This document shows positions 1,754 through 57,695 of a DNA stretch of 58,179 nucleotides, in pieces. Position 1 is the first letter of the stretch, and each line of letters opens with the position of its first letter. The notes under the pieces were generated by a model. That model ran no database searches and was not told where the DNA came from. It saw only the letters and a list, made by a program, of their open reading frames with translations. The stretch comes from a virus. Taxonomy: Duplodnaviria; Caudoviricetes. The translations under genes were made by a program, and so were the position numbers. The stretch lies in the IMG/VR virus record IMGVR_UViG_3300034170_000025, positions 1-58,179 of that record, one strand, 5' to 3'.

Positions 1754-1960
1754 ATGAAAAACGAAGAACTGCTTCTCGCTGAACAGAGAGTCCGTTATCT
1801 TTCAGAAGCTCTGCATAAGATTTCCTCTGATCTTGTTCAGGCAGGTATGTGTGGCTATGAGCCTAAGAGTGTTGAGATGATCGAGATGGGTAGCTGGGGT
1901 CTTGGGCTTTTCCCTATACTTGGCATCGAAACTGTGGAATATACATCGGAGGAAGAATGA
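1754..1960 (+). CDS. Hypothetical protein
   Basis: AAGGAG SD; ATGA overlap with polymerase start. Confidence 0.7.
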   Translation: MKNEELLLAEQRVRYLSEALHKISSDLVQAGMCGYEPKSVEMIEMGSWGLGLFPILGIETVEYTSEEE

Positions 1961-4221
1961 AACAAATTATCAACTGGCGGCAAGCGTCCATCGCTGACTT
2001 TGAGGCCGATGGCCTTCTTGATACAGTTACTCAAATGCACGTGATGTCTTACCAAATCCGCGAGATGAATGGAGACCTTTCAAAGGTATTCACGATTCGC
2101 CGAGACGATAAAAATTACATCCAACGTGTAGCGAAATTCTTTCAATATCACATTGACAAAAAGATTCCAGTTGTAATGCACAACGGTATCGGCTATGACG
2201 TTAAAATGGTTGAGAAGATTCTAGGTCTTGACTTGTCTGAGCTTATGGTGGTGGACACACTGATACTTTCTTGGTATCTGAGCCCTGAGCGTAATATGCA
2301 CGGCCTGGATTCGTTTTTTGACGACTACGGAATTGCAAAGCCAGTTATTGATAGCTGGGAACAAGGAGAAGAGGAGACCCTTGAAGAGTTCCTTGACCGT
2401 ATGCAAAATCGTTGCCAAGAAGACGTGAAGATCAACGTTGCTTTGTGGGAAGACCACATGGCTCGCCTGACTGACATGTACACACTGGCTCAAGGTTTTA
2501 TTGACTTTGGTCAGGAAGTTAAAAACACCAAGACAGGTGAAGTTGAAAAGGTTTTGAACGTTGGCGGCACTCGTATCTCCAGTGACGAGTGGATTCCTAT
2601 TGATGACATGATTGGTCAGAAAGTAGACACAGCAATCGACAAGATTATTACATTCCTGATGTTCAAGATGGATTGTGCCGCTCTGCAAGAGTCCACTCGA
2701 TGGGAGGTTGATGTTGACCACTGCCGTGAAGCTCTTGAGAAGCTTGAGGCTATCGTGCTTATCGCTCGTAGTGGCTTATCAGAGGTAATGCCAAAGGTTC
2801 CAAAATATGTAAAGAAGGCTGAGCCAAAGGCTGATAAGTTTAAGAAGAATGGTGATCGCAACTCTCACTGGGTGAAGTGGGACGAGGTTATGGAGAAGCT
2901 CAACTCTGGAGAAGTTGACGAAGAGACTGGTGCTCCGTTGGTCTTCATAAACCCAGAAGATGCACCGATTGAAGGGAAGCAAGCCTACCGTGTATGGCAC
3001 CATAACGAAGAGCCTAATCCGGGTTCACCGGGTCAAGTAAAAGACTTCCTGTTCAGCAAGGGTTGGGTTCCTCAGACATTCAAGTATGAGAAGGACGAGG
3101 TAGCGTTCGACGCATGGATTGCTTCGAAGCCACAAGGAAAGGCTGACCACAGGCAGTGGGAACGTTGGAAAAATGCTCGACCTGCTGAGCGGGCTATCCC
3201 ACAAATCTCTGTTGGTGGTGATGACGGCAAAGAGTTGTGCCCGAGCCTGCTAGACTTGGCTGAAGAGGTTCCAGCGATTAAGGTGTACGCTGACTACAAG
3301 GTGGCAGAGAACCGCCGTAATGTGCTCCTGGGGTTCTTCCGTGACATGACAGACGGGAAGTATTTGAAGGCTCGTATCGGCGGGCTGACAAACACTCTCC
3401 GAGTTAAGCACCGTGAGTTGGTTAACCTTCCAGGCACTGACAAGCCTTACGGTTACGACATTCGTGGTAGTTTGATTGCAGGCGTTAGGCGTATTCTAGT
3501 TGGTTCTGATATGTCCTCTCTTGAAGATCGTGTAAAGCACCACTTTATGCTGCCTCATGACCCTGAGTATGTAGCAACAATGCAAGCCCCAGATTTTGAC
3601 CCACACATACTCATGGCGTTGACAGCTATGATGATCAGTGAGTCGGAGTTCAAGGCATTTAAAGCTGATCCGAAAGGCAAGCACCCTGCCCACGTGAAGA
3701 AAGGCCGTAAGGATGGCAAGACTACAAACTATGCTTCCGTGTATAACGCTGGCCCTGCTAAGATCGCCCAGGCTGCTGGTGTCGACCTTGAGACAGGTAA
3801 GATGTTGCACACAGCCTACTGGGAGCTGAACTGGTCCGTAAAGACTATTGCAGAGGAGCAAGTTGTCTTCAAAGATGCACGCGGCATGAAGTGGCTGATC
3901 AATCCGATCAACGGTTTCTGCTACAGCCTGCGCTCTGAAGCTGACCGATTCTCTACCCTGGCTCAGGGCACTGGTAGCTACTTTTTTGATATGTGGGTTG
4001 ATAACATCTTGACTGAGCTGGTGCGTGTATTTGGTCGTAAGACTCTTACAGGCAGCTTTCACGACGAATGTATCATCTGCATGGGGGATAGCCCAGCGAA
4101 CCGTGAAAAGGTCGCCAAGATCATCAAGGACTCTGTCTATAAGGTAAATGATGATTTTGGACTACGCCGTAAGCTGGACTGTGATACCCAGTTCGGCCAA
4201 AGGTACAGTGATATTCACTGA
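1957..4221 (+). CDS. polA: Family A DNA polymerase with 3'-5' exonuclease domain
   Basis: Exo motifs DFEAD, HNGIGYD, RCQEDV; motif A GSDMSSLEDR, motif B RKDGKTTNYASVY (Tyr at the 762-equivalent position), motif C FHDE. Confidence 0.95.
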   Translation: MKQIINWRQASIADFEADGLLDTVTQMHVMSYQIREMNGDLSKVFTIRRDDKNYIQRVAKFFQYHIDKKIPVVMHNGIGYDVKMVEKILGLDLSELMVVDTLILSWYLSPERNMHGLDSFFDDYGIAKPVIDSWEQGEEETLEEFLDRMQNRCQEDVKINVALWEDHMARLTDMYTLAQGFIDFGQEVKNTKTGEVEKVLNVGGTRISSDEWIPIDDMIGQKVDTAIDKIITFLMFKMDCAALQESTRWEVDVDHCREALEKLEAIVLIARSGLSEVMPKVPKYVKKAEPKADKFKKNGDRNSHWVKWDEVMEKLNSGEVDEETGAPLVFINPEDAPIEGKQAYRVWHHNEEPNPGSPGQVKDFLFSKGWVPQTFKYEKDEVAFDAWIASKPQGKADHRQWERWKNARPAERAIPQISVGGDDGKELCPSLLDLAEEVPAIKVYADYKVAENRRNVLLGFFRDMTDGKYLKARIGGLTNTLRVKHRELVNLPGTDKPYGYDIRGSLIAGVRRILVGSDMSSLEDRVKHHFMLPHDPEYVATMQAPDFDPHILMALTAMMISESEFKAFKADPKGKHPAHVKKGRKDGKTTNYASVYNAGPAKIAQAAGVDLETGKMLHTAYWELNWSVKTIAEEQVVFKDARGMKWLINPINGFCYSLRSEADRFSTLAQGTGSYFFDMWVDNILTELVRVFGRKTLTGSFHDECIICMGDSPANREKVAKIIKDSVYKVNDDFGLRRKLDCDTQFGQRYSDIH

Positions 4222-7932: not shown

Positions 7933-8970
7933 TTGAGAGAGGACATTCTAATTTTTGACGCCGACAGTATTGCCTACAAGGCTGCTGCTGCAAACGAAGA
8001 CAAGAGCATTACAAGTGAGCATATTGAGAAGGGTGTAGTGGAAAGCTGGCCCAACAGAACAGCCTTCAGAGCCTATATCGCCGAGACAACTCACACAGAG
8101 GATATGTACATCATCAAGGACGTACAGGAGCCACGCCACTCAAGTTATGGCAAAACCCTGATTCGTGACATGATCAAGGGATATCACACAAGGACAGGAG
8201 TTAAGAAGGGTGAGATTTACATTGGTGGCTCTGACAACTTCCGAGACTCTATTCCTCTTCCGATGACTTGGGTCGCAACTTGCGGTAAATGGGCTGGCAA
8301 GAGTAGACTTGGCGGGAAGTATAAAGAAAACCGAGAAGACAACATCCGACCTGTTCAACTTAAAGAGTTGCGTAACTTCATGGTAAAAGAGCTTGGTGCT
8401 ATCGTTGTCGATTACCAAGAGGTTGATGACATGTCGTCTATCCGTGCATTTGAAGGTTTCAAGTCTGACACCGGACGTGTGATCCAAGTGACTGAGGATA
8501 AGGATGCACTTCAATGTAGTGGGTGGCTGTTCAACCCTGCCAAGATGATCAAACCTGTGCTGGTTAAAGGCTTTGGGGAGCTGCACAAGGACGGTAAAGG
8601 AGTCAAGGGTACTGGTAGGCTGTGGTTGTACTACCAAGCGCTCTACGGTGATTCTGTGGACAACTACCACGGCTGTGACCTATGGAAGATCGCACAGGAT
8701 AAGGCTGGTAAGAGTGTAACGTTTGGTGAAGTGGCAGCATATAACCTGCTGAAAGATTCAACCAACGATAAAGAGGCTCTGACAGCACTTTATAATCAGT
8801 ATAGAAGCTGGTATCCTGAGCCGGTAACGTATATGGCCCATGATGGTATTCTCCACACCAAAGATGCTGTCGAAATCATGCAGATGTATTTTGACTGTGC
8901 ACATATGAGACGTTGGGAGGATGACCGTATCGATGTGGCTGCTATGCTGGCAAAGCTCGGTATTCTATGA
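7933..8970 (+). CDS. 5'-3' exonuclease (T7 gp6/RNase H-like, PIN fold)
   Basis: IFDADSIAY, NFR, YKENR, EVDD, EDKDALQ, GDSVDNY motifs; TTG start with GGAGG SD. Confidence 0.88.
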   Translation: MREDILIFDADSIAYKAAAANEDKSITSEHIEKGVVESWPNRTAFRAYIAETTHTEDMYIIKDVQEPRHSSYGKTLIRDMIKGYHTRTGVKKGEIYIGGSDNFRDSIPLPMTWVATCGKWAGKSRLGGKYKENREDNIRPVQLKELRNFMVKELGAIVVDYQEVDDMSSIRAFEGFKSDTGRVIQVTEDKDALQCSGWLFNPAKMIKPVLVKGFGELHKDGKGVKGTGRLWLYYQALYGDSVDNYHGCDLWKIAQDKAGKSVTFGEVAAYNLLKDSTNDKEALTALYNQYRSWYPEPVTYMAHDGILHTKDAVEIMQMYFDCAHMRRWEDDRIDVAAMLAKLGIL

Positions 8971-13128: not shown

Positions 13129-13466
13129 TGGCTGATTACGCACTGAGTTTCCACGACCTGATGATGGTTGATGGCTTTAAAGAAGCACACGATACACAGA
13201 ACAAGAAAGTATTCGAAGCGATTCTACAGACGAATGGCTTTGAGGTGAGTTTGGGTTACGAGCTTGTAGCCTGCAACCACCGAACAATCAACAACATTGA
13301 GTACTACGGAATTCGTGTTGAAGGTTTTGAACGTACAGATAAGGCATGGATTGACACAGGATGTGCGAGCATGGAAGCCCAGATCGAAGCAGCTAAAGAC
13401 AAGAGCCTGAGACATACGCTACGTCAAATGAGTTATCAGGGTACACTAACTCCTATCAGTGAATAA
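13128..13466 (+). CDS. Hypothetical protein
   Basis: TAATG coupling with thyX. Confidence 0.7.
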   Translation: MADYALSFHDLMMVDGFKEAHDTQNKKVFEAILQTNGFEVSLGYELVACNHRTINNIEYYGIRVEGFERTDKAWIDTGCASMEAQIEAAKDKSLRHTLRQMSYQGTLTPISE

Positions 13467-34741: not shown

Positions 34742-34960
34742 ATGGCAAAGCGTTTGATCCACACCGAAACCCACACCACCGGACTTGGGATTGTTCACAC
34801 TGCTAAGGTGTATCGTGATAGTGAGTGGAACGAGTGGCAAGTGGTTTTTGCTCGTGACCGTAACACGAACTACAAGGCGAGCTATCACGCCGGTGATAAG
34901 GCAGACGCCATTGATACAGCCAAGTATCACATTCATCGTATGTCCAAACAGTTCGCATAA
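34742..34960 (+). CDS. Hypothetical protein
   Basis: AKVYRDSEWNEWQV...YH..DK.DAIDTA. Confidence 0.7.
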   Translation: MAKRLIHTETHTTGLGIVHTAKVYRDSEWNEWQVVFARDRNTNYKASYHAGDKADAIDTAKYHIHRMSKQFA

Positions 34961-35049
34961 TCAGGGGTCACACATGATCATCACCATTATCGAACTGGCC
35001 CTGGCCGCTTTCATCATCGTCGGCCTCTATAAGCTGTGGAGCGTGTAAC

Positions 35050-35313
35050 ATGATCTTCGCAACTGTCCTTAGCCTGTGCATGTCCGCATCATACAGCGAC
35101 TGTAACGACTACATTGTCGACGTCGCCCCAACAAGCAAAGACTGTAAAGTCAACCTTATCAACCACTCCAAGCGTATGGCTAATGTGTGGGCTCTCGATT
35201 CACTGCCTGCCCTGGCTAGCTTCTTGAAAGAGTTTCACATTGTAGAACAAGTCGAGGATATCGCAAGCTACGACTACACTTGTCAACCCATCGCTGATAA
35301 GGATGTTCCTTAG
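35050..35313 (+). CDS. YebW/DUF1482-like small Cys-containing exported protein
   Basis: IFATVLSLC...C.DYIVD...DC...YTCQ. Confidence 0.55.
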   Translation: MIFATVLSLCMSASYSDCNDYIVDVAPTSKDCKVNLINHSKRMANVWALDSLPALASFLKEFHIVEQVEDIASYDYTCQPIADKDVP

Positions 35314-35334
35314 AGCTTGTAGTCGTTGAACATG

Positions 35335-35358
35335 AGCCCGCCATGAGCGGGCCTTTTC
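35335..35358 (+). terminator. Intrinsic terminator closing the early block
   Basis: GCCCGC-CATGA-GCGGGC followed by CTTTT. Confidence 0.7.
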
Positions 35359-35416
35359 ATTCCTATCAACATGAGCCAAATTCAAGTTGCTTGCTGTGAA
35401 CATGAATCTAATTCGT

Positions 35417-35445
35417 TTGACAGGTTTTCATTCGCACGGTACAAT
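35417..35445 (+). promoter_or_regulatory. Consensus sigma70 promoter facing an ORF-less region
   Basis: TTGACA-17-TACAAT. Confidence 0.75.
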
Positions 35446-35463
35446 ACCTTAAGAGCTTTACCT

Positions 35464-36202
35464 TTAAGCGACAGCTTAAGGAAGTAATCCGATAGCTATA
35501 AAACATAATAACAAAACTCCTAAAGAATATCAACCCATAGCTTCGCTATAAGGGATTAAACCTTATGACCTTCGGTCATGTAGTTTGCACGGATCAAAAA
35601 GCGATAGCTTTTGTGGTTATCAATTGTAAAATATCTATAACATAAACCCCTAAAAACTATCTCAAAACCTAAGCCAAGGCTTAGAAGGTTAAACCCTCAG
35701 ACCGAAGGTCTAAGAAGGTCAAGAGCGGGCTGTAAGCCCCGTATTACAAGCGTTAGAGGCTATCCTACCCAATGCTACGCATTGAAGAGAAAACCCCTCA
35801 AATCAACGCTAAACCCCTTTCTAGCTCTCTGCCTCGCGTGGGTGAGCCCCGTTAGGGGCGAGACACTAAGCGAAGCGCTCTCACTTTCAGTGAATTGTCA
35901 AGAACTTCCTTAGATCATTACGCTATGTCCTACGGACAAACAGTTCTAACACCATGAGGGCAAATCCTCCCCAGTTGGCACACTTCTAGCAAGGCATATT
36001 GCATGCCAGGAATATCACCCCCTAGAGGGACAACCCCCATGGGCATGCTCGCCCTATGCACACACCCCTAACATGAATAACTCTCATGAGAGAATGAATC
36101 ACACATGACAATACATCCTATGTGCGAGCAATCCTACATGTTAATCATTCTCATGTGTGCATACGCACAAGTACAGAGCCACACGCTCTAATGCGAAGCA
36201 TT
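35464..36202. repeat. Array of short palindromes with GNA/GNNA-type loops
   Basis: At least 12 stems of 5-7 bp, nearly all with 3-4 nt loops (listed in findings). Confidence 0.8.
35976..36008. promoter_or_regulatory. Two opposed sigma54 (-24/-12)-like sites
   Basis: TGGCACACTTCTAGCA (+) and TGGCATGCAATATGCC (-), both GG-N10-GC. Confidence 0.45.
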
Positions 36203-36385
36203 GAAAGGCTAGCCCCTGGAGGGTGATACACACTCATGAGGATAAACCCTTGCCGGTGTGACCCTTTGAGGGAGATGTTCCACGTGGAGCAAATCTCTTT
36301 TATGGTGGAACGTTTGATGGGGCGAGCCCTCCCTAATAGGATTGATTCCCCTATGGGAGTGACTTTCCAATGAGAAGTGTTCTCG
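36139..36385. promoter_or_regulatory. Fur-box-like palindromes
   Basis: TGTTAAT-C-ATTCTCA (36139), TGAGAAG-T-GTTCTCG (36371); weaker copies at 36072 and 36089. Confidence 0.5.
36276..36291. promoter_or_regulatory. parS: parS-like site
   Basis: TGTTCCACGTGGAGCA, one mismatch to TGTTCCACGTGGAACA. Confidence 0.6.
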
Positions 36386-36443
36386 TTATTTTAGAATTAC
36401 GAGCGGCCAGCTAGTGGGCCTTGTGTTGTCGTTAAGCACCTCT

Positions 36444-36492
36444 CGCTCAAAACCGGTCCTGCCAGACCCACGCTCAAAACTGGCTCCGCCAC
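36444..36492. repeat. Direct repeat CGCTCAAAACYGGYYCYGCCA, two copies
   Basis: Copies at 36444 and 36471, 27-bp period. Confidence 0.75.
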
Positions 36493-36645
36493 ATCCCTTT
36501 ATATTTTCCTATGTCAAGGTGGAACACTCCGTCAAGTGGTGTTTATTTTTGGCGGCGGGATTTATTTTTGTGGACAAAATGTTGGTAGTATTGTAGAATT
36601 AGTAAAGGAGATACATACACTAAACCCCTATAGGGAGATTAAACA

Positions 36646-37059
36646 ATGGCAACAATTGATGAACAGTACACACTAGTTTCGCAGCTTGGCATTTACGGTG
36701 CCATCAACCAGGGTGCGTTTCAAAACACCCTTGATGGTAAAGATGCTCCGCCAGCTTTCCATATCGTACACAGAGGAAGCATGGCTACCTTCACCCCTTC
36801 TGAAAGTGATAATGGTGCATACACTGTGTTTGACTACGCAGGTGATATGGTGATTACACTTCCAGCTTCGCTGTCTGCACCAGAGCTAAACCCATTTACA
36901 ATGTTTGTAGTTAACACTCTTGGAAGGATTGACTTCGTGTGCGAGACTCCCTTCATTGGGTATGCTCCTCACGTTGAGCAGAACGTTACATGTGGGTTGC
37001 TGAGAGGTATGACCAACTGGTATGCTTCAGGGACAAACAACAAAGCAGAGCTTAGCTAA
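36646..37059 (+). CDS. Hypothetical beta-rich protein, possibly virion-associated
   Basis: GGGAG SD; promoter TGGACA-17-TAGAAT at 36571-36599; VITLP...WYASG. Confidence 0.7.
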   Translation: MATIDEQYTLVSQLGIYGAINQGAFQNTLDGKDAPPAFHIVHRGSMATFTPSESDNGAYTVFDYAGDMVITLPASLSAPELNPFTMFVVNTLGRIDFVCETPFIGYAPHVEQNVTCGLLRGMTNWYASGTNNKAELS

Positions 37060-37850
37060 TGACTCCGGTTATTTCACAACTGTTCAGCAGTTGCAGGGAG
37101 AGGAATCTTCGCACTCTGGACGATAATGTCCCTGATGAAAACTACCTGTTCTTGGTGACAAATTATGTTCCAGATATTGGGTCTTCTATATGGAAGTCAT
37201 TTGATAACTCTGTGCAGATGAATCCACTAACAGGGTGGACAGGCTTCTACTACACTTGGATGCCTGATCGTTCTATCTTTGCTGGATTCAGAACTCAGAA
37301 GTTTGGGTATGGCTTTGTGCACCCTAGTGCAACGTCCAGTGGAGAGCTTTATCTGAGAGTGCAGATTGGTATTCCAAAAGCCCCAGCGGCGTCTGGTCAG
37401 TGGTGGGCGTACTCTGAGAATCCTATTGTGGTGATCAAGGATAACGTCGATCAGAGCCTTAAGCTGTCTCTTTCTTGGCTGTATAATGGTGACACTAACG
37501 CTGCTACGAGAGACTTGAGTAGAACGTTGGTTCTTAAGTTTGTTGATAGGGATGGTGTAGACAGGACGTTATCTGCTGAGTATGTTTTCCCAGTTGGTGA
37601 GGAGTATATGAACATTGATATCAAAGTGTTCCTTCCTAAAGATGGTCCTGCCCAACTTGTGGCGGCTCCACTGGAAACAACAAACCCTCCAATCGTAAAC
37701 ACTTCTCTTACAGTTGGTAGAGGGTACTACGATATACAGCCTGATCAAACTCTTGCAGTAAACTCCTACGATGGTGTAACACCTACAAACTGTCTGACAC
37801 GTTACATGAGAGTTGGTATTGGTAACAAGATTACAACAGCTAGACCATGA
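37059..37850 (+). CDS. Hypothetical beta-rich protein
   Basis: TAATG coupling; ends at a bidirectional terminator. Confidence 0.7.
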   Translation: MTPVISQLFSSCRERNLRTLDDNVPDENYLFLVTNYVPDIGSSIWKSFDNSVQMNPLTGWTGFYYTWMPDRSIFAGFRTQKFGYGFVHPSATSSGELYLRVQIGIPKAPAASGQWWAYSENPIVVIKDNVDQSLKLSLSWLYNGDTNAATRDLSRTLVLKFVDRDGVDRTLSAEYVFPVGEEYMNIDIKVFLPKDGPAQLVAAPLETTNPPIVNTSLTVGRGYYDIQPDQTLAVNSYDGVTPTNCLTRYMRVGIGNKITTARP

Positions 37851-39641: not shown

Positions 39642-39896
39642 TCACCGAATGATCCTCCCGTTAAAGTTTGCATACCCTTCTTTATCGTCGTCATCGTAGA
39701 TGGTCCATGTAGACCTACACTCGCAGCACGCCACACTGATCCAGTAGCAGTCTGAAGTGGGGTCATAGTTACCAGTACTCCCGCCATACTTACCTGTCTT
39801 GTCAGTGTGAGGGCAGGTAGCTTGCAGTTCAGCCAGCTCTTGGGACAGTCGACTACGCATTGTGATGATGCGTGCTACACGTTCTTTGATAGTCAT
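39642..39896 (-). CDS. Hypothetical Zn-binding-like protein
   Basis: LQATCPH...CCEC; ATGA overlap. Confidence 0.65.
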   Translation of the reverse strand: MTIKERVARIITMRSRLSQELAELQATCPHTDKTGKYGGSTGNYDPTSDCYWISVACCECRSTWTIYDDDDKEGYANFNGRIIR

Positions 39897-44777: not shown

Positions 44778-45905
44778 TTAAATACTACCGGATTGTTTTA
44801 ATGCTGTCAACAGACTTTTTTGTCCATTTGCCAGCTCTTTTGCATCTGTAGTGCAACGTGCAACGTCATCTCGCTCGATCTGACGTACCTCAGTTACAGT
44901 CTCCAGTACACGCTGACGCAATGTGCTCAGAGTCTCAGTAGAGATGGTCGCAGTACCCAATGCCTTAGCACTGTTGATGGCAGCGATCTTAGCACCTTCA
45001 CTACCTTTGAGCAAGCTCTTTTCAGTGAGGTCACGCACGTTACTCACGAGCTGGATGCTGCTGTTCACGTCCAGGGTCTGTTTGAACAAAGCAAACTCCA
45101 TCATGATTACTGGAATATTCATCATGATGCCTTTCAGCGTAGACACTGCTGTACGGCTCGACTCCTGCTGCTGGCGAATCCGTGGACTGTTGATTTCAGT
45201 CATAGTTTTCAGACGCAGCAGGGTGTCCAGCTTCAACTTCAGACGGTGAATCTTAGACTCAGCATCACGCACCATCTGAGCTTCCATTGCAGCGTTAGGA
45301 CCACTCAGGTCAATCTCAGGCCACGACGCAACTTGGGATTCACACATGTCGATCAGGCTCTGTACTTCACGCATCTCAGAGGTGATCTTACCATAGTGGT
45401 TGTAGTTCTCGCCATACAAACCTTCCATGTCAGTGATCCACTGTTGTTGAGTGGTGATGTTCACGGAGATTTTATTCTCCAGGTCACCAAACACTTGCTG
45501 TGCAGAAGATAGACGCATGGTTAGCGTATTCTTCAGGTCACTGAATTTGTTCTGGAACCAGCCTACCACACCACCCTTCTGAAGGGAAGCAGGATCAAGC
45601 TTATCAGCTTCAGAGGCAATAACAGTTAGGATTGCACCTAGCTCTTCAAACTTGCCAACAGACATTTTGGTGATAATCTTCTGAGTGGTGTTACCCAACT
45701 CACGAGAGACGTTTTCACCAATACGGTCAATGTCTTCGTCAGACACGACCAGATTACGTGATGGCAGGCCAGCTTCACGAATTGTGGCAGGGAACGCCGA
45801 ACTCCTGCCAACAGGGGTTTCGGCGATCACAACTGAAACCTCACCAGCCTTCAAGCCACCAGTTGGCGCTGGCTGAAGTCCCGCTCTAGCAAATACTTTA
45901 CTCAT
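44778..45905 (-). CDS. telA: TelA/XpaC-type toxic anion resistance protein
   Basis: Long coiled-coil protein, LDP..L.K.G..GWF motif, ter-cluster context; AAGGAG SD before ATG 45905. Confidence 0.7.
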   Translation of the reverse strand: MSKVFARAGLQPAPTGGLKAGEVSVVIAETPVGRSSAFPATIREAGLPSRNLVVSDEDIDRIGENVSRELGNTTQKIITKMSVGKFEELGAILTVIASEADKLDPASLQKGGVVGWFQNKFSDLKNTLTMRLSSAQQVFGDLENKISVNITTQQQWITDMEGLYGENYNHYGKITSEMREVQSLIDMCESQVASWPEIDLSGPNAAMEAQMVRDAESKIHRLKLKLDTLLRLKTMTEINSPRIRQQQESSRTAVSTLKGIMMNIPVIMMEFALFKQTLDVNSSIQLVSNVRDLTEKSLLKGSEGAKIAAINSAKALGTATISTETLSTLRQRVLETVTEVRQIERDDVARCTTDAKELANGQKSLLTALKQSGSI

Positions 45906-45912
45906 AGTGGGT

Positions 45913-46299
45913 TTACTCTCCTTTCTCAATTCGGCCAATTTCTGTAGGGGTGTCACTGTGTTTACCACTCCATTTTAGTGTGCGGCCATTCAGCCCGTGG
46001 AAGAGAATATACCCGTCTTTCGAGAACAGGTCAACACCTTTCGAGACATCTTCCCCGTAACGTGTTGGAACTTCAAACCCCTCCAAGTCGTAAAAAGACC
46101 AGCGCTCGCCGCAGCACTCACACCAATAACGAGCATCATCTTTGTCGATCATATCTTGCATAATAGCAAACGCTTGATCAACGTTCATAGCTTGTACGAA
46201 TACAACATCTGCAACAAAATCACCACGCTCGTAGTAACCACCAGAGTTATTCTGGTCAAACTCGTACCACAAAGCACCTTCAATTTTTACTGGAAGCAT
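45913..46299 (-). CDS. Conserved phage protein (QNNSGG/CECCGERW family)
   Basis: WYEFDQNNSGG...CECCGERW; GGAG SD; promoter TTGACA-17-TAGAAT at 46373-46345. Confidence 0.7.
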   Translation of the reverse strand: MLPVKIEGALWYEFDQNNSGGYYERGDFVADVVFVQAMNVDQAFAIMQDMIDKDDARYWCECCGERWSFYDLEGFEVPTRYGEDVSKGVDLFSKDGYILFHGLNGRTLKWSGKHSDTPTEIGRIEKGE

Positions 46300-46387
46300 T
46301 CTCTTCTCTCCGTTTGTTTGCACCCTTAAGTGCTGATGTGAGTGATTCTACGCATCATGGTTATCGGTGTCAACACTTTCTTTTAGG

Positions 46388-46416
46388 CAAAGAAAAGCCC
46401 GCACAAGGCGGGCTAT
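46388..46416 (-). terminator. Intrinsic terminator
   Basis: AGCCCGC-ACAAG-GCGGGCT with a T-run on the minus strand. Confidence 0.75.
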
Positions 46417-46420
46417 TCGA

Positions 46421-46735
46421 TTAAGCAGTTAGCAACTCTGGAGTTGGTACTAGCAATGACGGATCAGCAGTTGGTACTGCTGGACCGGACAACTTCTCTT
46501 GAGCGATAAACTCACGATCAGTTTTATAGCGTGCATGACCGCCATCTGCAAAGTACACGTGGTACTGAGACAGAACACCTTTGTGTGGTGCCACAATTGT
46601 GGCTTTCCAGGCAGCCACTCCAGCACTGCCTGTAGTAGTCACGTCAATCCAAAAGCTATCCAGAAGTGGACCAGCCCCGGCGTTGTCCATGATACCAACC
46701 CAAGCGATTGTGTAAATAATTACTCTTTGTGCCAT
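46421..46735 (-). CDS. Hypothetical protein
   Basis: Co-oriented; ends at the terminator. Confidence 0.6.
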   Translation of the reverse strand: MAQRVIIYTIAWVGIMDNAGAGPLLDSFWIDVTTTGSAGVAAWKATIVAPHKGVLSQYHVYFADGGHARYKTDREFIAQEKLSGPAVPTADPSLLVPTPELLTA

Positions 46736-46738
46736 CTT

Positions 46739-46984
46739 TCATTTCCTTCTATTAGGGGAAGCAGAACCTACCTCCACAGCGTATTGTAACACATCCATTA
46801 AGATGTGTATACCTCTATTGTAGGTTGGACCTACGAGCCAGCGAGAATCTTCAATCTTGTCAAGCAGGTACATTCGGTCGTCTTCATCAAGCAAAACCGC
46901 TGCTGATGCAACTCCCTTTGTAAGGTTGTCAAGGTATTCAAGATACTCGACACCAGCCTCTCTAGTCATCCCACCATGAGCCAT
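46739..46984 (-). CDS. Hypothetical protein
   Basis: GGAGG SD. Confidence 0.6.
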   Translation of the reverse strand: MAHGGMTREAGVEYLEYLDNLTKGVASAAVLLDEDDRMYLLDKIEDSRWLVGPTYNRGIHILMDVLQYAVEVGSASPNRRK

Positions 46985-46985
46985 A

Positions 46986-47561
46986 CTACATACCTCCGAT
47001 CCACTTGCTTATTCGTTCAAAGTCTTCAGCCTTGTTCAAGTTGAAGGTGTCTATGCCGTTTTCTTTAGCAAGGTTGATTGCCGTAGCAGTCCCGCCTTTA
47101 GGATTACCAGCTTTATCGAGACGTGTCCATGCTATCAGCATTTTTGAAGGTGCGTCAAGCATTTTCCCTAAGACTTGGAACACATTACGTGTGTGCATCT
47201 TCCTTGCACCAGTTTTACAGGCTGACCAAGCTGGGTGTATAGCCTCAGCCATACCCTCAGCAATGCGCTCGTCTGTGAGCTTTATATCGCTTGGGAGTAT
47301 ATTTAGCCCTCCATGAGAATACTTATAATGGTCCTCGTAGCCAGCCCATGGAAGATAAATCTCTGCTGGAGTCCAACTCCAAGGACCATCTAAACCAGCA
47401 AACCTGAACATTCCATTTTCAAAGGCTTGGTCAGCCCCCAAAGCACCTCCAGATCGTAAGGTCCACCCTTGAGAGGCCAGCTTGTGGCCGACCTCTTCCA
47501 TCAGGTTTAGAATGTTAGCAGGCGTCTCGCGTGAGCCCACGCCTGTGTAGTACTTCATCAC
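46986..47561 (-). CDS. SLOG-superfamily (DprA/Smf-like) protein
   Basis: YTGVGSRETP, LRSGGALGADQAFE, RN..QVLG, GGTATA. Confidence 0.8.
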   Translation of the reverse strand: MMKYYTGVGSRETPANILNLMEEVGHKLASQGWTLRSGGALGADQAFENGMFRFAGLDGPWSWTPAEIYLPWAGYEDHYKYSHGGLNILPSDIKLTDERIAEGMAEAIHPAWSACKTGARKMHTRNVFQVLGKMLDAPSKMLIAWTRLDKAGNPKGGTATAINLAKENGIDTFNLNKAEDFERISKWIGGM

Positions 47562-47863
47562 TTAACTTTCCAAGGCTCTGACTCAGACTTTGGAGTCTCT
47601 GGAGGCAGACCTACGTTAACCATAGCCAGGATGCTCACCTTAACGGCAGACAACGCATCGCCGATCATTCGGCATGGCAGGATGAAGAACCCAAACACAG
47701 CTTCGCCGCAGGCTTCCTTGAAGTCTCGGGTAGACACCCGACGAACCTCTTTAAAGCGGATGCTGTAAAGAAAGTAGAAAACGTAAGTCACATAGAGGAT
47801 TCCGTATGCGATTGCAAACTTAATCCAGTGTTCAAACAGAAAATCCATTGCAGACGAAAACAT
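47558..47863 (-). CDS. Membrane protein
   Basis: N-terminal hydrophobic helix; GGAG SD. Confidence 0.6.
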   Translation of the reverse strand: MFSSAMDFLFEHWIKFAIAYGILYVTYVFYFLYSIRFKEVRRVSTRDFKEACGEAVFGFFILPCRMIGDALSAVKVSILAMVNVGLPPETPKSESEPWKVK

Positions 47864-48081
47864 ATTAATTTCTCCCCGTTTCTTTACGCCATTTGGCGTC
47901 TAGTGTTTTGATAAGAGCATCAAGCTCCTTGAATTTTTTGGCTTTGTAAAGCTCAAGGCATTGACTGCCCGGAGCCAGCCAAGTGTCTTTGTACTTAACT
48001 GCGTCTCTGTACACTATTTATCCCGCTTTTCACAGAACCAGTAGGTAGCATAGCAAGCACAACCAATCACCAACAACTCGA

Positions 48082-48606
48082 TCAGCATAAATCTTCCTCC
48101 CTCAGTACATACACCGTTACTGTAAAACGTTCGTCGAAGACACTATCAACAATCTCAGCAATTGTATCCCAGTCACCACCGCCAAGGCCAGCCCCAATCT
48201 TAGGGAAACCTACTTTAAAGTAGTTAGGCTGATACTGTGTAGCAGTTAGGATGTCATTCCGCATGTGGGTCAAAGCCTCTTCAAGCTTACCATAATCAGT
48301 GTACCCCTTTGCGTCATAGCCGTAGTTGTATTGACCATAGAGGTTGTAGATCAACCCACAACTTCCGTCATCGCGGTCGTGAACACCAACAGAGCAGTCA
48401 CCAAACTTACCAACGTCGCCTTTTTCAGTCTCCTGATCAGCGTACCAAGCATCAGGAAACTCCATCTTGATGGCTTTAGCCACACCAGAGTTCATGGTAC
48501 AGAAGCAGTTTGCCTGATGCCCAATAACACTCACCTCGCCAGATTTGAGGGCTTCAGTTAAGTCACCAACTTTGTACTTAATCTTATTGTCATTGTACTT
48601 AGTCAT
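48082..48606 (-). CDS. Macrodomain (ADP-ribose-binding/hydrolase) protein
   Basis: GDL, HQANCFCTMNSGVAKAI, NLYGQ, PKIGAGLGGGDW. Confidence 0.9.
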   Translation of the reverse strand: MTKYNDNKIKYKVGDLTEALKSGEVSVIGHQANCFCTMNSGVAKAIKMEFPDAWYADQETEKGDVGKFGDCSVGVHDRDDGSCGLIYNLYGQYNYGYDAKGYTDYGKLEEALTHMRNDILTATQYQPNYFKVGFPKIGAGLGGGDWDTIAEIVDSVFDERFTVTVYVLREEDLC

Positions 48607-48712
48607 ATTTAGCCATCTCCCGCTCGTGCCACTTTTCATGCACTTCATCTGCAAATGCAACGATGACACAGAAAATGAATAAACCAAAAAGCAGTTCCAT
48701 AAAACCTCCTTA

Positions 48713-48739
48713 GAAAAGAAGCCCCTCCGAAGAGGGGCG
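48713..48739 (-). terminator. Intrinsic terminator
   Basis: GCCCCTC-TTCG-GAGGGGC-TTCTTTT on the minus strand. Confidence 0.8.
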
Positions 48740-48744
48740 ATACA

Positions 48745-50496
48745 TCATGCCGAACGGGTACGAATTTCATCCAGTGTTACACGGCTCAGGAAGACACCAT
48801 CACGGTAGAACACTTTTAGGGCGTTACCCTCTTCTTCTTCCCACTCTTTGGTCACATTATCGTCAAGCTCAAAACCAGCCTCAGAGTGCATAACGTACAG
48901 ACGACCTTTAGCACTTTTCTTCTTGCTGTCAGTCTTCGGGTCTTTGAAGATTGCGACTTCTTCGCCGTTGATCACGGAGTTAGTAGCCTTCACAGCAAAG
49001 CCGAAGGTGTCACGGGTGTTGCACTGGTAGGTGTAACTACCAACCCCGAAGACAACGTTTGCAGCAGCAAAGCCCTTCTTGGACAGACGATCCAGAATCT
49101 CCAGAGCACGTTTGGTGGTAATACTGTCACCATAAATCAGGCCAATGTGCGAGTCAAGCAGTTTGTGACCAGTTTCGGTGAGAGTCCCACCAAAAGTGTC
49201 ATACAGAACCTCGATTGCGCCTTTTACTTCTGCTTCAGTGATTTCAACCTGAACATAGTCGTAAAAATCACAACCACGCCAGTCATCGTAACCCTCATAG
49301 CTGATTTCGTAGTACTTACCGTCAACACGAACGTAGTCATAGCCAAGGTCATGATATTCACCACGATCACTGTTATTCTCAAGTGCTTCCTGAGTGGTAT
49401 CAACCACACTGAAACCACAGATCACTTTAACAGGATCACCAGAGTCTGGACGCACCACCAGTTTACCCGGTTGTGGGCCAAATCCTTCACGTGCCATGAT
49501 CACGTCTTTCAGGTATGGATACCCACGAGTCAGCATACCCCAGAAGTCGTATGTATCCGATACGTTAGAGACGATGCCGTTAGGTACAATCTGAGTGATC
49601 AGGACATACACAAACATCACTTCTGCGATCAGACGCATGTCTTCTTGCTTGCCCAACATCTTGAAGCAGATCAACTCTTGCTCGGTGCTCACGAATTGGT
49701 ACTTGCTGGCTTCCAACTCATTTTGGATGCTGATAATGTTGTTCGAAGTTACGGCGTGCTCGGTAGCAGGAACGCTGATACCAATCAAACCTGTCGCATC
49801 GTAGTAACGCTTGGCGTAGGTGATAGCTGGCAGAGTGTCAGTGCCAATGAACTGAGTCAAGTGGCCGATACCGCTACGTGCAGCGTCTTCGATACCGCTC
49901 ATACCACGCATCGAGAAGTCGTGGCACATTACCGACACAGTGAAGGCATCGTAGCAGCCAGTAAGTTTGGTGTAGTGCTCACAAATCTTACGATACTCAC
50001 GTGCGATTGTAGCGTTGGTAGCTGTCTTCCAAGTAGACGCAGACAGTGGAGTCTCTTGGTAGTTCACCAGCCAGAAAAACTCAGGCAGGGTGTTGGTGAT
50101 GGTCATGACAGGGATACCCATCGGAACCAAACTACCTTCAGGCAGCGAACGGAACTCCAGCGGCAGGTAGCCAAGTTCATGCAAATCACACATCTGTTGA
50201 ACAGTTGGCAACTCTCGCCCGAGATAACCTTGCAGGAATTCTGCATACTCAGCAATAACTTCAATCTGTGATTTCGAGAAGAAAGTGCGAACCCAGTTTT
50301 CGTTCAGCTCTTGTACAGCAGCCTGACCACCAACCCAAACCAACTTGCCATCGTAGAACGCTGTGCAGTTGCGGCGATGAATTTTGTCAGTACGTGGTGT
50401 CAGGTTGCTGCCCACCTGAGTGGTGCCTTTACGGTACATCTGACCGTGGCCCAGCTTGTAACCATCAGTAGCCAAGTGCATCAGGAAATTACTCAT
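48745..50496 (-). CDS. Nicotinamide phosphoribosyltransferase-like enzyme (Namat/Nampt)
   Basis: TDGYKLGH, HDFSMRG, PATEH, VSDTYD, RPDSGDP, IYGDSIT, RDTFGFAVKAT, KSAKG. Confidence 0.92.
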   Translation of the reverse strand: MSNFLMHLATDGYKLGHGQMYRKGTTQVGSNLTPRTDKIHRRNCTAFYDGKLVWVGGQAAVQELNENWVRTFFSKSQIEVIAEYAEFLQGYLGRELPTVQQMCDLHELGYLPLEFRSLPEGSLVPMGIPVMTITNTLPEFFWLVNYQETPLSASTWKTATNATIAREYRKICEHYTKLTGCYDAFTVSVMCHDFSMRGMSGIEDAARSGIGHLTQFIGTDTLPAITYAKRYYDATGLIGISVPATEHAVTSNNIISIQNELEASKYQFVSTEQELICFKMLGKQEDMRLIAEVMFVYVLITQIVPNGIVSNVSDTYDFWGMLTRGYPYLKDVIMAREGFGPQPGKLVVRPDSGDPVKVICGFSVVDTTQEALENNSDRGEYHDLGYDYVRVDGKYYEISYEGYDDWRGCDFYDYVQVEITEAEVKGAIEVLYDTFGGTLTETGHKLLDSHIGLIYGDSITTKRALEILDRLSKKGFAAANVVFGVGSYTYQCNTRDTFGFAVKATNSVINGEEVAIFKDPKTDSKKKSAKGRLYVMHSEAGFELDDNVTKEWEEEEGNALKVFYRDGVFLSRVTLDEIRTRSA

Positions 50497-50532
50497 TGTG
50501 TCTCTCCTTTGTGTCTCTGTTTGTGTGGTGCC

Positions 50533-50560
50533 ATCTTACCAGATTGGCCCTCCATGTCAA
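50533..50560 (-). promoter_or_regulatory. sigma70 promoter
   Basis: TTGACA-16-TAAGAT followed by GGCACCACACAAAC. Confidence 0.75.
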
Positions 50561-50707
50561 CGTTTATTTTGCATCGCAGTAGACCACATCATCTGATCAA
50601 TGCGATCATTGTAATTGCGGTTAGAGATGTAAAATGCAATCCAAGCCACTACCCAAGGAAAGAACAGGATGGATAGGATCAAGTGACCAATGTGATTTGT
50701 TCTTCGT

Positions 50708-51523
50708 TTAGTTAACATTGTTGCCTCCGCAGTAAAATTGTGGGTTCATCATTAGCGGTGCATCTGGTGGCAAGAAGCACTGTGGCTGTTGCATCACTAC
50801 AGGTGTTGCTACCGCTGGTTGACGTTGTTGCATCAAGAGCTGGTTTTGCATGTCGAGCTTATCCTCGATACGCTGGTCAGTCTTAGCTTGTTCAATCTGT
50901 GCAGCAGTAGCCCCCGAGCTTGCACCGTAGTGGTGTGGAGTACTCAAGGCATTGTACAGCATCATACCGCCGACCGCACCCGCAGCACCATATAAGAAAC
51001 TACTTCCACCAGAGTTATACCCACCATAACCGTAACCACCGCCATAACCCCGATTGTATCCATTATAGCCTCCGTAAGAATTGCCGTAGTAGTTGCGTTG
51101 AATCACTGTGGTGCGTGGGCTGCTGTATACCGAACGATTGGAGCTGTACCCAACAGGGCTGATAACCTTACGAACTGGAGCCTTGTAGGCTGGTGCGCTG
51201 CTCACACTCTTCTTACCAAACCAACCCGTATTAACTGTCGATGTAGGACGGCTAGACGGTACGCTTGCACTTGGACGGCTTACCGTCTGGGTTGGTGCAG
51301 GCTTGGAGAAACCAAGCGCCTTTAGGCCAGGGTTGCTGCTTGTTGAACGGCTCGGAGCGGACACCGCTGGAGCCGAGTACTGCTTTGGGGCAGAATAGCT
51401 GCTCCGAGACGAAGAGCTGTAGCTCGACCGAGAGGACGAAGAAACTCGACTTGCTGCCCCAGCCTCTACAACAATCATACCCATCATCAGGAAGCCCATA
51501 ACACCAGCGATAATCTTTTTCAT
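50708..51523 (-). CDS. Exported low-complexity Ser/Gly/Tyr-rich protein
   Basis: Signal peptide, Ser/Pro-rich region, GY repeats, a hydrophobic segment, Cys pair at the end. Confidence 0.75.
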   Translation of the reverse strand: MKKIIAGVMGFLMMGMIVVEAGAASRVSSSSRSSYSSSSRSSYSAPKQYSAPAVSAPSRSTSSNPGLKALGFSKPAPTQTVSRPSASVPSSRPTSTVNTGWFGKKSVSSAPAYKAPVRKVISPVGYSSNRSVYSSPRTTVIQRNYYGNSYGGYNGYNRGYGGGYGYGGYNSGGSSFLYGAAGAVGGMMLYNALSTPHHYGASSGATAAQIEQAKTDQRIEDKLDMQNQLLMQQRQPAVATPVVMQQPQCFLPPDAPLMMNPQFYCGGNNVN

Positions 51524-51532
51524 GTGTAATCC

Positions 51533-52381
51533 TCAGTATTTCAGAACAGTAAGTTTTGGGTTAAGCCCTTGCGGTAACGAGTCAGTAGTGTACACGTGAT
51601 CAAACACATCTGTCAACACCTCGACACCCTTAGAGAAGATACCGTGTGTGACGGCCAACTCAAGGTACTCAACATAGCTGATGCACTTCACCAATTCTAC
51701 GAATGTACGCCCGCCATCACAAATATCATCGAGTACCAGATACTTACCGTCTGGGTCGACATCACCAATTGGCGCCATCCCTGTAATCTTACCTGTCGAA
51801 AGCTCACGATGCTTCTGGAAGTACACAACCGCCTTGGCCCCAACAGCTTTTGCGAACTCTTCGGTCTTCTTAGCAGCACCAGCATCAGGGGCAATGATAG
51901 TCCACTCGCTCCAGTCGTCTTTGATGCCTTTGAACGCAGTGATCTGGTCAACTACGAAGCATCGGTCCAATGCAGCTACGAGAACGGGGCTGTGAGGGTC
52001 TACAACAGTCACTGTGGCGTAGTTCTGCGAGTTAATGAGTGTAGCCATTAACTTGGCACTCAAAGCCTCCCCAGGGTTGCATACGCGGTCCTGGCGTGCA
52101 TACGGAAAGTATGGAATGTTCAGGTCAAGGCGTGCATTTGGGTAGACACGACGCAAAGCGTCTGTCGCAAGAAACATTGCCATCAACTGGTCGCTGTTTT
52201 GAATCTTAGCAACAAGATCAATGGTATCAACGTAGTTGGATTCAGTGTCCAGCCAAGAAAGAGAGCCAGTGTTGATATTCACGCCAACCTCGCCACCAGG
52301 GAAGGTCATTGTGCTGATAGAAATCCGTTGGGTGCGGAAGCCATTTACTGTGTAGTAAAGATTTTCGTTAAAATCGGTCAT
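51533..52381 (-). CDS. Ribose-phosphate pyrophosphokinase-like enzyme (Adps/Prs)
   Basis: FPGGE, PYFPYARQDR, DPHS, APDAGA, DDICDGGRTF, THGIFSKG. Confidence 0.92.
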   Translation of the reverse strand: MTDFNENLYYTVNGFRTQRISISTMTFPGGEVGVNINTGSLSWLDTESNYVDTIDLVAKIQNSDQLMAMFLATDALRRVYPNARLDLNIPYFPYARQDRVCNPGEALSAKLMATLINSQNYATVTVVDPHSPVLVAALDRCFVVDQITAFKGIKDDWSEWTIIAPDAGAAKKTEEFAKAVGAKAVVYFQKHRELSTGKITGMAPIGDVDPDGKYLVLDDICDGGRTFVELVKCISYVEYLELAVTHGIFSKGVEVLTDVFDHVYTTDSLPQGLNPKLTVLKY

Positions 52382-56522: not shown

Positions 56523-57695
56523 TTATTCATAATCACGAATTACTACACCAGTTGGGAACTGTGGCAGTTTAGTCTTCTTGAAGCGAGACTGGTATCTTAC
56601 AGTAATCATCTTACTGATGTAAAGCTCTTTGTTAGCCAGATACTCAGCCCGTTTAGCCATAGAACCCAGTGTAACAGTGAAGGTCCGGTCATTCAAGTTG
56701 TTTCTCACAACAAAGCATGAACCATCGTCCTTGGCTTCGATAACGTCTAGAATCTCAAACTCAGCATCAACAAACTCTTTATACTTCTGAAGATCAGCAG
56801 AACGCTTGCCGCTCTCGTACAAACCCTTGAAGTTTCGGAGCATCAAACCTTCATAGCCACGGTCAACAGCATCATCGTGCTTAACCTTCATGTCAGCTTC
56901 ATCAGCAACCCAAACGTACTGGGTGATCTGAATGCAAGGAGACACAACTGGGATGCCAGTTAGCTCGTCAAGGTCTTTTACACGCTCTGAGAACTCTTTA
57001 TCAGAGTAGATATCAAAGATGTGGAACTCCAGCTTAGGGCGAATCTCATGGATCAGGTAAGCCTCTTCTACTTCATCACAAGAAAGCTTATGCTTCTCAG
57101 CATTGTAAGGGACAGCATACCGGGCCTTCTCAGCCTTCTTTACAGCAGCATCAATCTTAGCTTGAGTATCAGTACGACCTACAGCAGAGGTAATATCTTG
57201 TAGGCATTCTCCATGCAGATAGATTTCACCATCCCAGATATCTCCATCACGCATATGGATGGATAGGGCAGCATGGATATGTGGAAGGTTATAAGTCTGC
57301 GATGTGCGAGACTCAATGGTAACAACACCATTACGTTTCTTCGCCAGGGCACGCACGCCGTCATATTTATCAGAACCGAAGCATGGATATACAACACTCT
57401 TACCACGCTTGCGGTAATCAGCAGCAAGCATAGCCAAGATGTCAAGGTTTTCAAGATCAACCTTGTTCTCACGGTAGTTTTTATCTTCTTGCTTCTTTAT
57501 GCGAGCACGTGCCTCAAGATCAGCTTGCTCTCCAAGTGTACGGCCTTGTTTGCCTTCACTAATATGCTCGTTCTTGATGGTCATCTTACCACCAAGTTTT
57601 CCGTGACTGATAGTGATTTCACCAGCTTCAGATGTGGTAATAGTCCAAACCTTGAAGCCACCTTTCTTGTCAAGCCCATAAAGTGTCTTAATCAT
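56523..57695 (-). CDS. ATP-dependent DNA ligase
   Basis: MLA, KYDGVR, DGEIY, IFD, EGLMLR, KYK, C-terminal OB fold with FP. Confidence 0.92.
   Translation of the reverse strand: MIKTLYGLDKKGGFKVWTITTSEAGEITISHGKLGGKMTIKNEHISEGKQGRTLGEQADLEARARIKKQEDKNYRENKVDLENLDILAMLAADYRKRGKSVVYPCFGSDKYDGVRALAKKRNGVVTIESRTSQTYNLPHIHAALSIHMRDGDIWDGEIYLHGECLQDITSAVGRTDTQAKIDAAVKKAEKARYAVPYNAEKHKLSCDEVEEAYLIHEIRPKLEFHIFDIYSDKEFSERVKDLDELTGIPVVSPCIQITQYVWVADEADMKVKHDDAVDRGYEGLMLRNFKGLYESGKRSADLQKYKEFVDAEFEILDVIEAKDDGSCFVVRNNLNDRTFTVTLGSMAKRAEYLANKELYISKMITVRYQSRFKKTKLPQFPTGVVIRDYE

Follow-up and report, generated by a model that had tools for sequence, protein, structure and literature searches.

A positionally conserved array of DNA mini-hairpins at the predicted terminal-repeat junction of Otagovirus-like Pseudomonas phages

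A dense array of DNA mini-hairpins occupies positions 35464–36202 of the 58,179-nucleotide stretch of viral DNA analysed here (Caudoviricetes; IMG/VR record IMGVR_UViG_3300034170_000025; hereafter the window), a 58-kb IMG/VR fragment that is 59% complete. The window phage is related to the ~98-kb Pseudomonas myophages of the genus Otagovirus (phiPsa374, PPSC2 and REC, among others), and the array lies in a gene-free gap of 1.33 kb (35314–36645) that has a plus-strand gene block on its left. The hairpins are real, they are selected as pairings, and their loops are of DNA-stable types. In two genera the cluster keeps a fixed register to the mapped left end of the direct terminal repeat (DTR); this boundary usually falls at a mini-hairpin, and the mapped end coincides with one in two genera. 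In the window, where it is present as a single copy, the region would, by homology, be the point at which unique right-end DNA meets the DTR. We infer, with a probability of roughly 45%, that the region serves at the concatemer junction as a cis-element of DNA structure, with a part in how the genome end is cut and duplicated.

All 12 hairpins listed in an initial annotation of the region, made from the sequence alone, were found where that annotation placed them, and two perfect hairpins that it had overlooked were added (CTAAGC-CAAG-GCTTAG at 35669 and TGTGC-ATAC-GCACA at 36156). One of its items, GC-GAA-GC at 35870, is present as a motif on the plus strand, but its stem is only 2 bp long. 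When perfect hairpins with a stem of at least 5 bp and a loop of 3–4 nt were counted, the region contained 13, compared with a mean of 1.34 (sd 1.17, maximum 7) in 2000 dinucleotide-preserving shuffles, and for triloop hairpins the corresponding values were 8 against a mean of 0.67 (sd 0.80, maximum 4). The region likewise stood out within the window: sliding windows of 739 bases contained 2.4 hairpins on average over the 58 kb, and those outside the region contained 8 at most. The earlier remark that the triloops read GAA or GTA on one strand or the other held for eight out of eight (GAA, TTC, GTA or TAC), whereas of the 84 triloop hairpins in the rest of the window just 2 had such a loop.

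The loops were then compared with the families cGNAg, cGNNAg, cGNABg and cCNNGg, which are named as stable DNA loops in the title of Nakano et al. (2002), as cited in PMC3201870; the available text of the latter describes the GNA loop and the effect of a C:G closing pair. A hairpin was assigned to a family when its loop occurred together with the correct closing pair on either strand (C:G for the first four of cGNAg, cGNNAg, cGNABg, cCNNGg and gCNNGc), for which the uniform expectation is 3% of triloops and 8.5% of tetraloops. Within the window, 9 of the 11 array hairpins fitted, whereas beyond the gap 6 of 174 did so (Fisher 4.5e-10), and in 11 relatives the fit was 77 out of 113, against 2 out of 72 in the upstream coding flanks (5e-21, the relatives not being independent of each other). 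Across the aligned phages described below, the stable form of the loop lies on the plus strand at some positions (a G..A loop at D in 13 of 13 phages and at B in 12 of 13) and on the minus strand at others (C, 10 of 12; hairpin letters as in Table 1). Both strands, taken as single-stranded DNA, folded better than shuffles (z = -4.0 and -4.8, by nearest-neighbour folding only), and the cores GC-GTTA-GC, GC-GAA-GC and GC-GATA-GC, of the kind seen in G4-type and single-strand initiation (ssi) signals, were present. The proposal of the initial annotation that GNA and GNNA loops form a DNA-level rather than an RNA-level signal on both strands is thus borne out by loops and closing pairs that fall into the families, by covarying stems and by two inverted loops.

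The array resembles the stable mini-hairpins d(GCGNAGC) and d(GCGNNAGC) of Hirao and colleagues in loop and closing pair, and the motif at its boundary is GCGAAGC itself. Those mini-hairpins are, however, physico-chemical motifs, whereas the present ones have stems of 5–8 bp, form a positionally conserved array and are tied to a genome end; their stability is predicted from sequence. The GCGNAGC 7-mer was also tried as a marker on its own and rejected as not diagnostic, with copies scattered over the genomes (30 against 22 of a reversed control in phiPsa374, 36 against 18 in PPSC2, 44 against 24 in Pakpunavirus EM, 18 against 19 in KIL4 and 37 against 34 in phiK7A1). Palindromic operators for a protein were considered and dismissed, since the stems vary between hairpins and between phages and it is the loops that are constrained.

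Conservation was assessed in a MAFFT alignment (A1) in which 13 phages, namely the window, eleven Otagovirus-type phages and Flaumdravirus KIL4, were each represented by the 590 nt surrounding the boundary motif. Omitted were Bitten, Kremar, vB_PseuGesM_254 and UAVern (no boundary motif in the stretches compared, several of these records ending before it), phiK7A1 (its only motif match falls inside a gene), Ventosus (boundary motif present, loops mostly outside the families) and M5.1, psageK4 and phiPsa267 as near-duplicates of REC and phiPsa374. Measured from the boundary, the hairpins share locations near -330, -300, -270, -198, -168, -140, -97 and +59, and a hairpin occurs at B, C, D, E, F, G, H and L in 12–13 of the 13 phages, with up to 8 different stems at any one position. 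The compensatory changes that the initial annotation had suggested looking for were found: with the window's own eight hairpins (44 pairs) as the structure, 27 of the 44 pairs had changed on both sides, compared with 16.1 +/- 2.3 in shuffles, none of 500 of which reached this number. Paired cells amounted to 80.9% (67.1% in shuffles), and the covariation score was 0.356, against 0.142 in shuffles and 0.047–0.140 with slid partners. Hairpin H was 100% paired, with compensatory change in four of its six pairs. The unpaired cells were mostly due to 3- versus 4-nt loops shifting the register, each phage's hairpins being perfect in their own register; G-U wobble cells reflect the same loop-length misregister and are no evidence either way. 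At two positions the loop is inverted within an identical stem: at E it reads CAAG, against CTTG in PPSC2, and at H it changes between GGAC and GTCC from Psxphi15 to KIL4. Finally, the strain-level contigs from three peat-metagenome runs have no listed substitution in the interval 35378–36130 (a single base, 35652, is missing from one of them), while the adjoining gene shows many differences.

The gap matches the DTRs annotated in phiPsa374-type records, the ends of which were set with PhageTerm according to the available text of PMC9796965. In all three annotated Otagovirus records (phiPsa374, phiPsa267 and phiPsa300) the DTR starts at A/GCGAAGC (A/GCGAAGCGATCTCAC, a slash marking the boundary) and ends at ...GGTT/. 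By homology, GC-GAA-GC at 35870 would represent bases 2–8 of the mature genome, so placed that the hairpins from 35464 to 35859 stand in right-end unique DNA directly before the predicted DTR and those at 35926 and 36190 inside it. The DTR of UNO-G1W1, derived from nanopore data (551 bp in the record; PMC11256812, as far as its available text goes), lies 10–11 nt inside the same boundaries at both ends. In Pakpunavirus, for which the accessible part of PMC3652863 describes mapping of PaP1-type ends by run-off sequencing, records from three laboratories (EM, Ab02 and K8) place the DTR start inside a hairpin, TAAGC-GACA-GCTTA; the position is TTA/AGCGACAGCTTA (TTA/AGCG) in EM and Ab02 and one base earlier in K8. 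The right boundary reads GGTT/AAG in Pakpunavirus EM and GGTT/AAA in phiPsa374.

Clustering of such hairpins is largely confined to this place. In the whole genomes of phiPsa374, PPSC2 and KIL4, the terminal region is the sole cluster of at least 3 family hairpins within 600 bp, and in EM, a Pseudomonas aeruginosa phage, the clusters are likewise terminal except for a small one of 3 hairpins. The pattern is more pronounced in EM, with eight family hairpins over the 410 nt that lead to its DTR boundary and further ones within the 1192-bp DTR. The GCCTGTAAGGC hairpin and the CCCCTTTCC blocks are common to Pakpunavirus and Otagovirus, a block homologous to that of hairpin G is present in Pakpunavirus too, and the CCCCTTTCC block found at 35806..35823 in the window also precedes the Pakpunavirus DTR boundary; the sharing of blocks between the two genera implies that the element is old. 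When IMG/VR was scanned for the pattern of the junction motif, 49 loci matched, of which 12 carried 5–8 family hairpins and 37, serving as a control, carried 0–1. The boundary in the twelve array-bearing loci reads GCGAAGC, GCGACAGC or GCGAAAGC, or has no mini-hairpin (two loci), and one IMG/VR locus shows the form GC-GAAA-GC at the same site.

Our preferred reading, an element of the concatemer junction, would work as follows. Unwinding or negative supercoiling of the junction would let the hairpins fold in vivo; once folded, they would withstand smoothing by single-strand-binding protein (SSB) and could act as fixed landmarks for the packaging and replication machinery on the concatemer. End formation would then be their job: the top strand would be nicked at TA/AGCG, at the foot of a mini-hairpin, and the repeat would be copied by local strand-displacement or primase-started synthesis, such that both daughter ends receive it. 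Published models for duplication of the T7 repeat, as given in the available text of PMC4281155 (citing Chung and Hinkle 1990), likewise rely on strand displacement or on synthesis started by a primase, and include a hairpin intermediate; a hairpin form of DNA during T7 end formation is reported there. The T7 junction is also similar in its short DTR, in the T7-like replisome genes and, in the window's clade, in a promoter just before the repeat (T7 phiOR at 39229), but phiOR serves T7's own RNA polymerase and T7 has no array. Within the T7 repeat there is a hairpin with a 7-bp stem and a cGAAg loop on the minus strand, whose copies at 66–82 and 39843–39859 are two of the four family hairpins genome-wide.

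A more specific proposal, which we regard as somewhat unlikely, is that Otagovirus, Flaumdravirus and Pakpunavirus mark their genome end by the shape of the DNA, in place of a pac or cos site read from sequence only. Extruded or unwound mini-hairpins on both strands, in a fixed array, would position the end-forming enzymes, a nick would be made at the hairpin foot, the new 5' end would fold back and the 3' end would be handed to the polymerase that duplicates the repeat. If true, such a shape-marked end would represent a new type of packaging and terminus signal, one encoded in structure.

Several observations count against a role in end formation. The larger part of the array is upstream of the cut in the top strand and would stay duplex in the simplest nick-and-displace model, and the stems are only 5–8 bp long, so that folding in duplex DNA requires supercoiling or unwinding. 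T7, the best-studied phage with a short DTR, manages without an array, two of its four family hairpins being the copies in the repeat. KIL4 (GCAAAAC), 16Q (GCGAAAC) and two of the 12 IMG/VR relatives have lost the boundary mini-hairpin, while TAAGC next to the boundary is invariant in the alignment; the cut may thus be read by sequence and not by shape. The DTR boundaries of the window phage itself rest on homology rather than on its own mapped ends, and the window contains no terminase gene that could be linked with the array.

The main rival, which we consider unlikely, is a replication origin or a cluster of single-strand initiation signals, in which the hairpins would be SSB-resistant primase start sites on each strand for a gp4-like primase or host DnaG, and in which, within the window's clade, opening of the DNA would be the task of the upstream promoter. 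The presence of stable loops on both strands is what bidirectional priming would require; the core of hairpin D is GC-GTTA-GC in 7 of 13 phages, the array is preceded by a consensus sigma-70 promoter directed into it, the phage encodes a primase/helicase, and the cumulative GC skew peaks just left of the array, at ~32–34 kb, where gene orientation flips as well. T7 origins consist of a promoter plus a downstream element, a layout similar to the promoter and array seen here. Moreover, the natural uses of mini-hairpins listed in the available part of a 2026 review (G4 GCGAAAGC, St-1/alpha3 GCGTTAGC, ssiA and the N4 promoters; PMC13037366) are all RNA-synthesis start sites on single strands.

However, the fixed register of the array to the DTR cut site across two genera has no obvious need in an origin. 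The promoter is conserved in REC, Psxphi15, PHB09, KIL4 and 16Q (six phages including the window), but phiPsa374, PPSC2 and Bobbio lack it, and ahead of the array in Pakpunavirus EM none was detected; since these phages keep the array, the promoter cannot be essential to it. Neither an AT-rich unwinding element nor iterons were found, the direct repeats in the gap being short and weak, and the turn in GC skew is explained by the convergent gene blocks. Compared with the origins of G4, St-1 and alpha3 and with ssiA and ssiB of RSF1010, the cores are the same (GCGAAAGC, GCGTTAGC and CCGAAGG, as listed in the available part of PMC13037366), and the RSF1010 signals occur on both strands, as here. 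Those systems have 1–3 hairpins at the origin of a single-stranded or plasmid replicon, in contrast to about ten in a double-stranded linear phage, locked to a DTR boundary. The origin and the end-formation readings would overlap if priming serves duplication of the repeat.

Quite improbable, in our view, is a signal for ejection or end protection, that is, a T5-like pause or stop of DNA entry or a barrier to exonuclease at the incoming end. The element does lie within 1 kb of the predicted right end, and the T5 injection stop region offers a likeness in being gene-free, rich in repeats and palindromes and associated with a terminal repeat, although the T5 repeat is ~10 kb long and its signal stops first-step transfer. 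The mature 5' end would also begin with a mini-hairpin motif, and nuclease resistance of GCGAAGC is stated in the available part of PMC13037366. On the other hand, hairpins are not formed in duplex virion DNA, and the exonuclease barrier suggested by the initial annotation fits poorly, because most of the array is 0.57–0.97 kb inside the predicted right end, with nothing outside being protected. As for a stop of entry, transcription of the genes on either side runs towards the ends, so that no operon would be exposed in full if entry stopped after the first kilobase, and the available texts of PMC9796965 and PMC3652863 report no two-step transfer for these phages.

More improbable still is a structured non-coding RNA, transcribed from the promoter at 35417–35445 and containing hairpins that act in the RNA. 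In its favour are the 11/12 match of that sigma-70 promoter, 10–20 nt before hairpin A, its conservation in the six phages named above, and a hairpin spacing as constant as in a folded RNA. Yet the stable loops lie on the plus strand at some positions and on the minus strand at others; a single RNA would have favourable loops in only about half of its hairpins, the other half being ordinary UNC loops, which makes a structured RNA unlikely despite the promoter. In addition, the array uses the DNA-selection loop families cGNABg and cCNNGg, no per-phage hairpin contains a G-U pair (each is perfectly Watson-Crick in its own register), and four relatives that keep the array are without the promoter. 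A search of Rfam over 34800–37200 with E up to 1 gave one chance-level snoRNA match only (E = 0.5).

We assign a very low probability to selfish or neutral mini-hairpin repeats, similar to REP palindromes, that would have piled up in a gene-free terminal region. The paralogy of the hairpins at 35770 and 36190, flanks included, would suit such repeats, as would the two loop inversions between relatives, a trait of this class. However, the hairpins have no core in common and differ in their stems, they form one cluster per genome and are not dispersed, the same positions are held across genera, and among the three strain-level contigs no substitution is listed in the hairpins while the flanking coding DNA varies.

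N4-type hairpin promoters for a virion RNA polymerase are close to refuted: the geometry, a 5–7 bp stem with a 3-nt GNA loop, is the same, but there is no giant polymerase gene (the longest frame has 833 aa in the complete phiPsa374 genome and 754 aa, the DNA polymerase, in the window) and most hairpins have no genes downstream. The family classifier does pick out the left-end N4 hairpins at 90 and 557, which we take to be the early promoters P1 and P2. The N4 early promoters (PMC13037366, legend of Figure 8c) resemble the present hairpins in having a 5–7 bp stem and a GNA triloop and in lying near the genome end, where they are extruded from duplex DNA; they differ in serving a virion RNA polymerase, absent as a gene in this lineage, and the hairpins described here are not placed before genes.

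Coordinates of the array, the predicted DTR and the surrounding features are collected in Table 1. The hairpin at 35881 may be a chance occurrence, as it has no stem-5 counterpart in the 12 relatives.

Table 1. Hairpins of the array, predicted ends and neighbouring features of the window (a slash marks a DTR boundary; phage counts refer to alignment A1).
Feature	Position	Strand	Sequence or type	Occurrence and remarks
Hairpin A	35464..35479		TTAAGC-GACA-GCTTAA, cGNNAg on plus strand	6/13 aligned phages, those with the promoter
Hairpin B	35537..35549		ATAGC-TTC-GCTAT, cGNAg on minus strand	13/13, 8 different stems
Hairpin C	35565..35579		ATGACC-TTC-GGTCAT, cGNAg on minus strand	12/13
Hairpin D	35597..35612		AAAAGC-GATA-GCTTTT, cGNNAg on plus strand	13/13, all GNNA on plus strand
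Hairpin E	35669..35684		CTAAGC-CAAG-GCTTAG, cCNNGg	13/13
Hairpin F	35699..35711		AGACC-GAA-GGTCT, cGNAg on plus strand	13/13, 8 different stems
Hairpin G	35727..35739		GGGCT-GTA-AGCCC	13/13; within a nearly invariant block (GGCCTGTAGGCC in most relatives)
Hairpin H	35770..35784		CAATGC-TAC-GCATTG, cGNAg on minus strand	13/13
Conserved block with AAACCCCTTTC	35806..35823	+		Near-invariant alignment columns; ~50 nt before the DTR boundary
Hairpin I	35846..35859		GCCCC-GTTA-GGGGC, cGNNAg on plus strand	9 nt before the boundary; nearby hairpin in 8/13, none found in 5
Predicted left DTR boundary	35867..35876	+	TA/AGCGAAGC	Motif aligned to phiPsa374 type, by homology only
Predicted DTR	35869..36433		565 bp, once in the contig	Boundaries from alignment to phiPsa374
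Hairpin at 35881	35881		TCACT-TTC-AGTGA	No stem-5 counterpart in 12 relatives; 4-bp stem nearby in 1
Hairpin L	35926..35938		TGTCC-TAC-GGACA, cGNAg on minus strand	Inside the predicted DTR; 13/13 at +59 to +63 (4-bp stem in KIL4)
Hairpin N	36190..36202		AATGC-GAA-GCATT, cGNAg on plus strand	Inside the predicted DTR; also in PPSC2
Predicted right DTR boundary	36430..36437	+	CGTT/AAGC	By homology only
Last right-end gene	35050–35313			Ends just before the gap
Intrinsic terminator	35336..35358 (hairpin 35336–35352)	+	GC stem, 5-nt loop, T-run	After gene 35050–35313
Sigma-70-type promoter	35417..35445	+	TTGACA-17-TACAAT	11/12 matches; reads into the hairpin array
Primase/helicase	50–1684			T7-like replisome
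Family-A DNA polymerase	1957–4221			T7-like replisome
Exonuclease	7933–8970			T7-like replisome
Ligase	56523–57695			T7-like replisome

The terminator that follows the last right-end gene has homologues at the equivalent place in relatives, Pakpunavirus EM included. It was the sole qualifier in a terminator test of the plus strand over 35300–36000, and one weak call on the minus strand overlaps hairpin B; the remaining array hairpins have no T-runs, and the array as a whole does not qualify as an intrinsic terminator. To the right of the gap stand two plus-strand open reading frames (ORFs) and then a minus-strand gene block. The ORFs (36646–37850) encode 137 aa without a PHROG match and 263 aa assigned to phrog_29136, of unknown function, and are preceded by a promoter-like site at 36571–36599; as the left end of phiPsa374 begins directly with minus-strand genes, they are probably an inserted module. 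The window contains no tRNAs. An IMG/VR search for relatives of the last right-end gene yielded one weak locus, which has no array, and the four sequencing runs that contain the window phage, represented as contigs, include none of RNA on record.

Further features of the junction were noted. Hairpins H and N, each with the 15 bases that follow (35771–35798 and 36190–36217), are paralogous, with 75% identity over 28 nt and different loops (TAC and GAA); H is outside the predicted DTR and N inside. A TGTCAA block at 35897–35902 (columns 694–699 of alignment A1), ~30 nt inside the predicted DTR, is invariant in 13 of 13 phages and may be a promoter -35 box, a primase site or a protein site. Just right of the predicted DTR end, at 36444–36496, there is a tandem pair of 26–27-nt units, both starting with CGCTCAAAAC, at which one strain-level contig lacks 27 nt. 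The heptamer AACCCCT occurs 12 times in the window, compared with 5.9 +/- 2.2 in shuffles, and four of the copies, all on the plus strand, are in the gap (35645, 35792, 35812 and 36623). In Pakpunavirus EM, positions 13416–13434 hold two overlapping alternative hairpins, GAAGC-GATA-GCTTC and ATAGC-TTC-GCTAT, one being stable on each strand, and the pair is also found in K8 and Ab02.

Gene 35050–35313 is far more variable among the strain-level contigs than the adjoining gene-free array, and in one contig 78 nt of window positions 34960–35039 are replaced by 85 other letters. Farther away, the minus strand carries an auxiliary metabolism cluster (44778–52381) with genes for a 'tellurite resistance' family protein (44778–45968), a DprA-like protein (46986–47561), a nicotinamide phosphoribosyltransferase (48745–50496) and a ribose-phosphate pyrophosphokinase (51533–52381).

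Literature on Otagovirus, Flaumdravirus and Pakpunavirus that mentions hairpins or terminal repeats yielded no description of the array in its available text, supplements aside, and no transcriptome paper with data on this region was found. The PaP1 genome is said, in the accessible part of PMC3652863, to have no complicated secondary structures, and the natural uses given in the available part of the 2026 review (PMC13037366) include no terminal-repeat case. The array would add to a short list of natural mini-hairpin roles, which comprises single-stranded phage origins, ssiA and the N4 promoters.

How ends are recognised, cut and duplicated in phages with short DTRs is not settled even in T7, and it is unknown in the Pakpunavirus/Otagovirus group, which includes phages used against Pseudomonas aeruginosa (Pakpunavirus, in therapy) and against kiwifruit canker. 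A covarying array locked to a mapped end provides a concrete and easily mutated target for the question of end formation. Moreover, the junction motif and the array together allow physical ends to be placed in genomes of this clade that have been assembled as circles or are available only as fragments.

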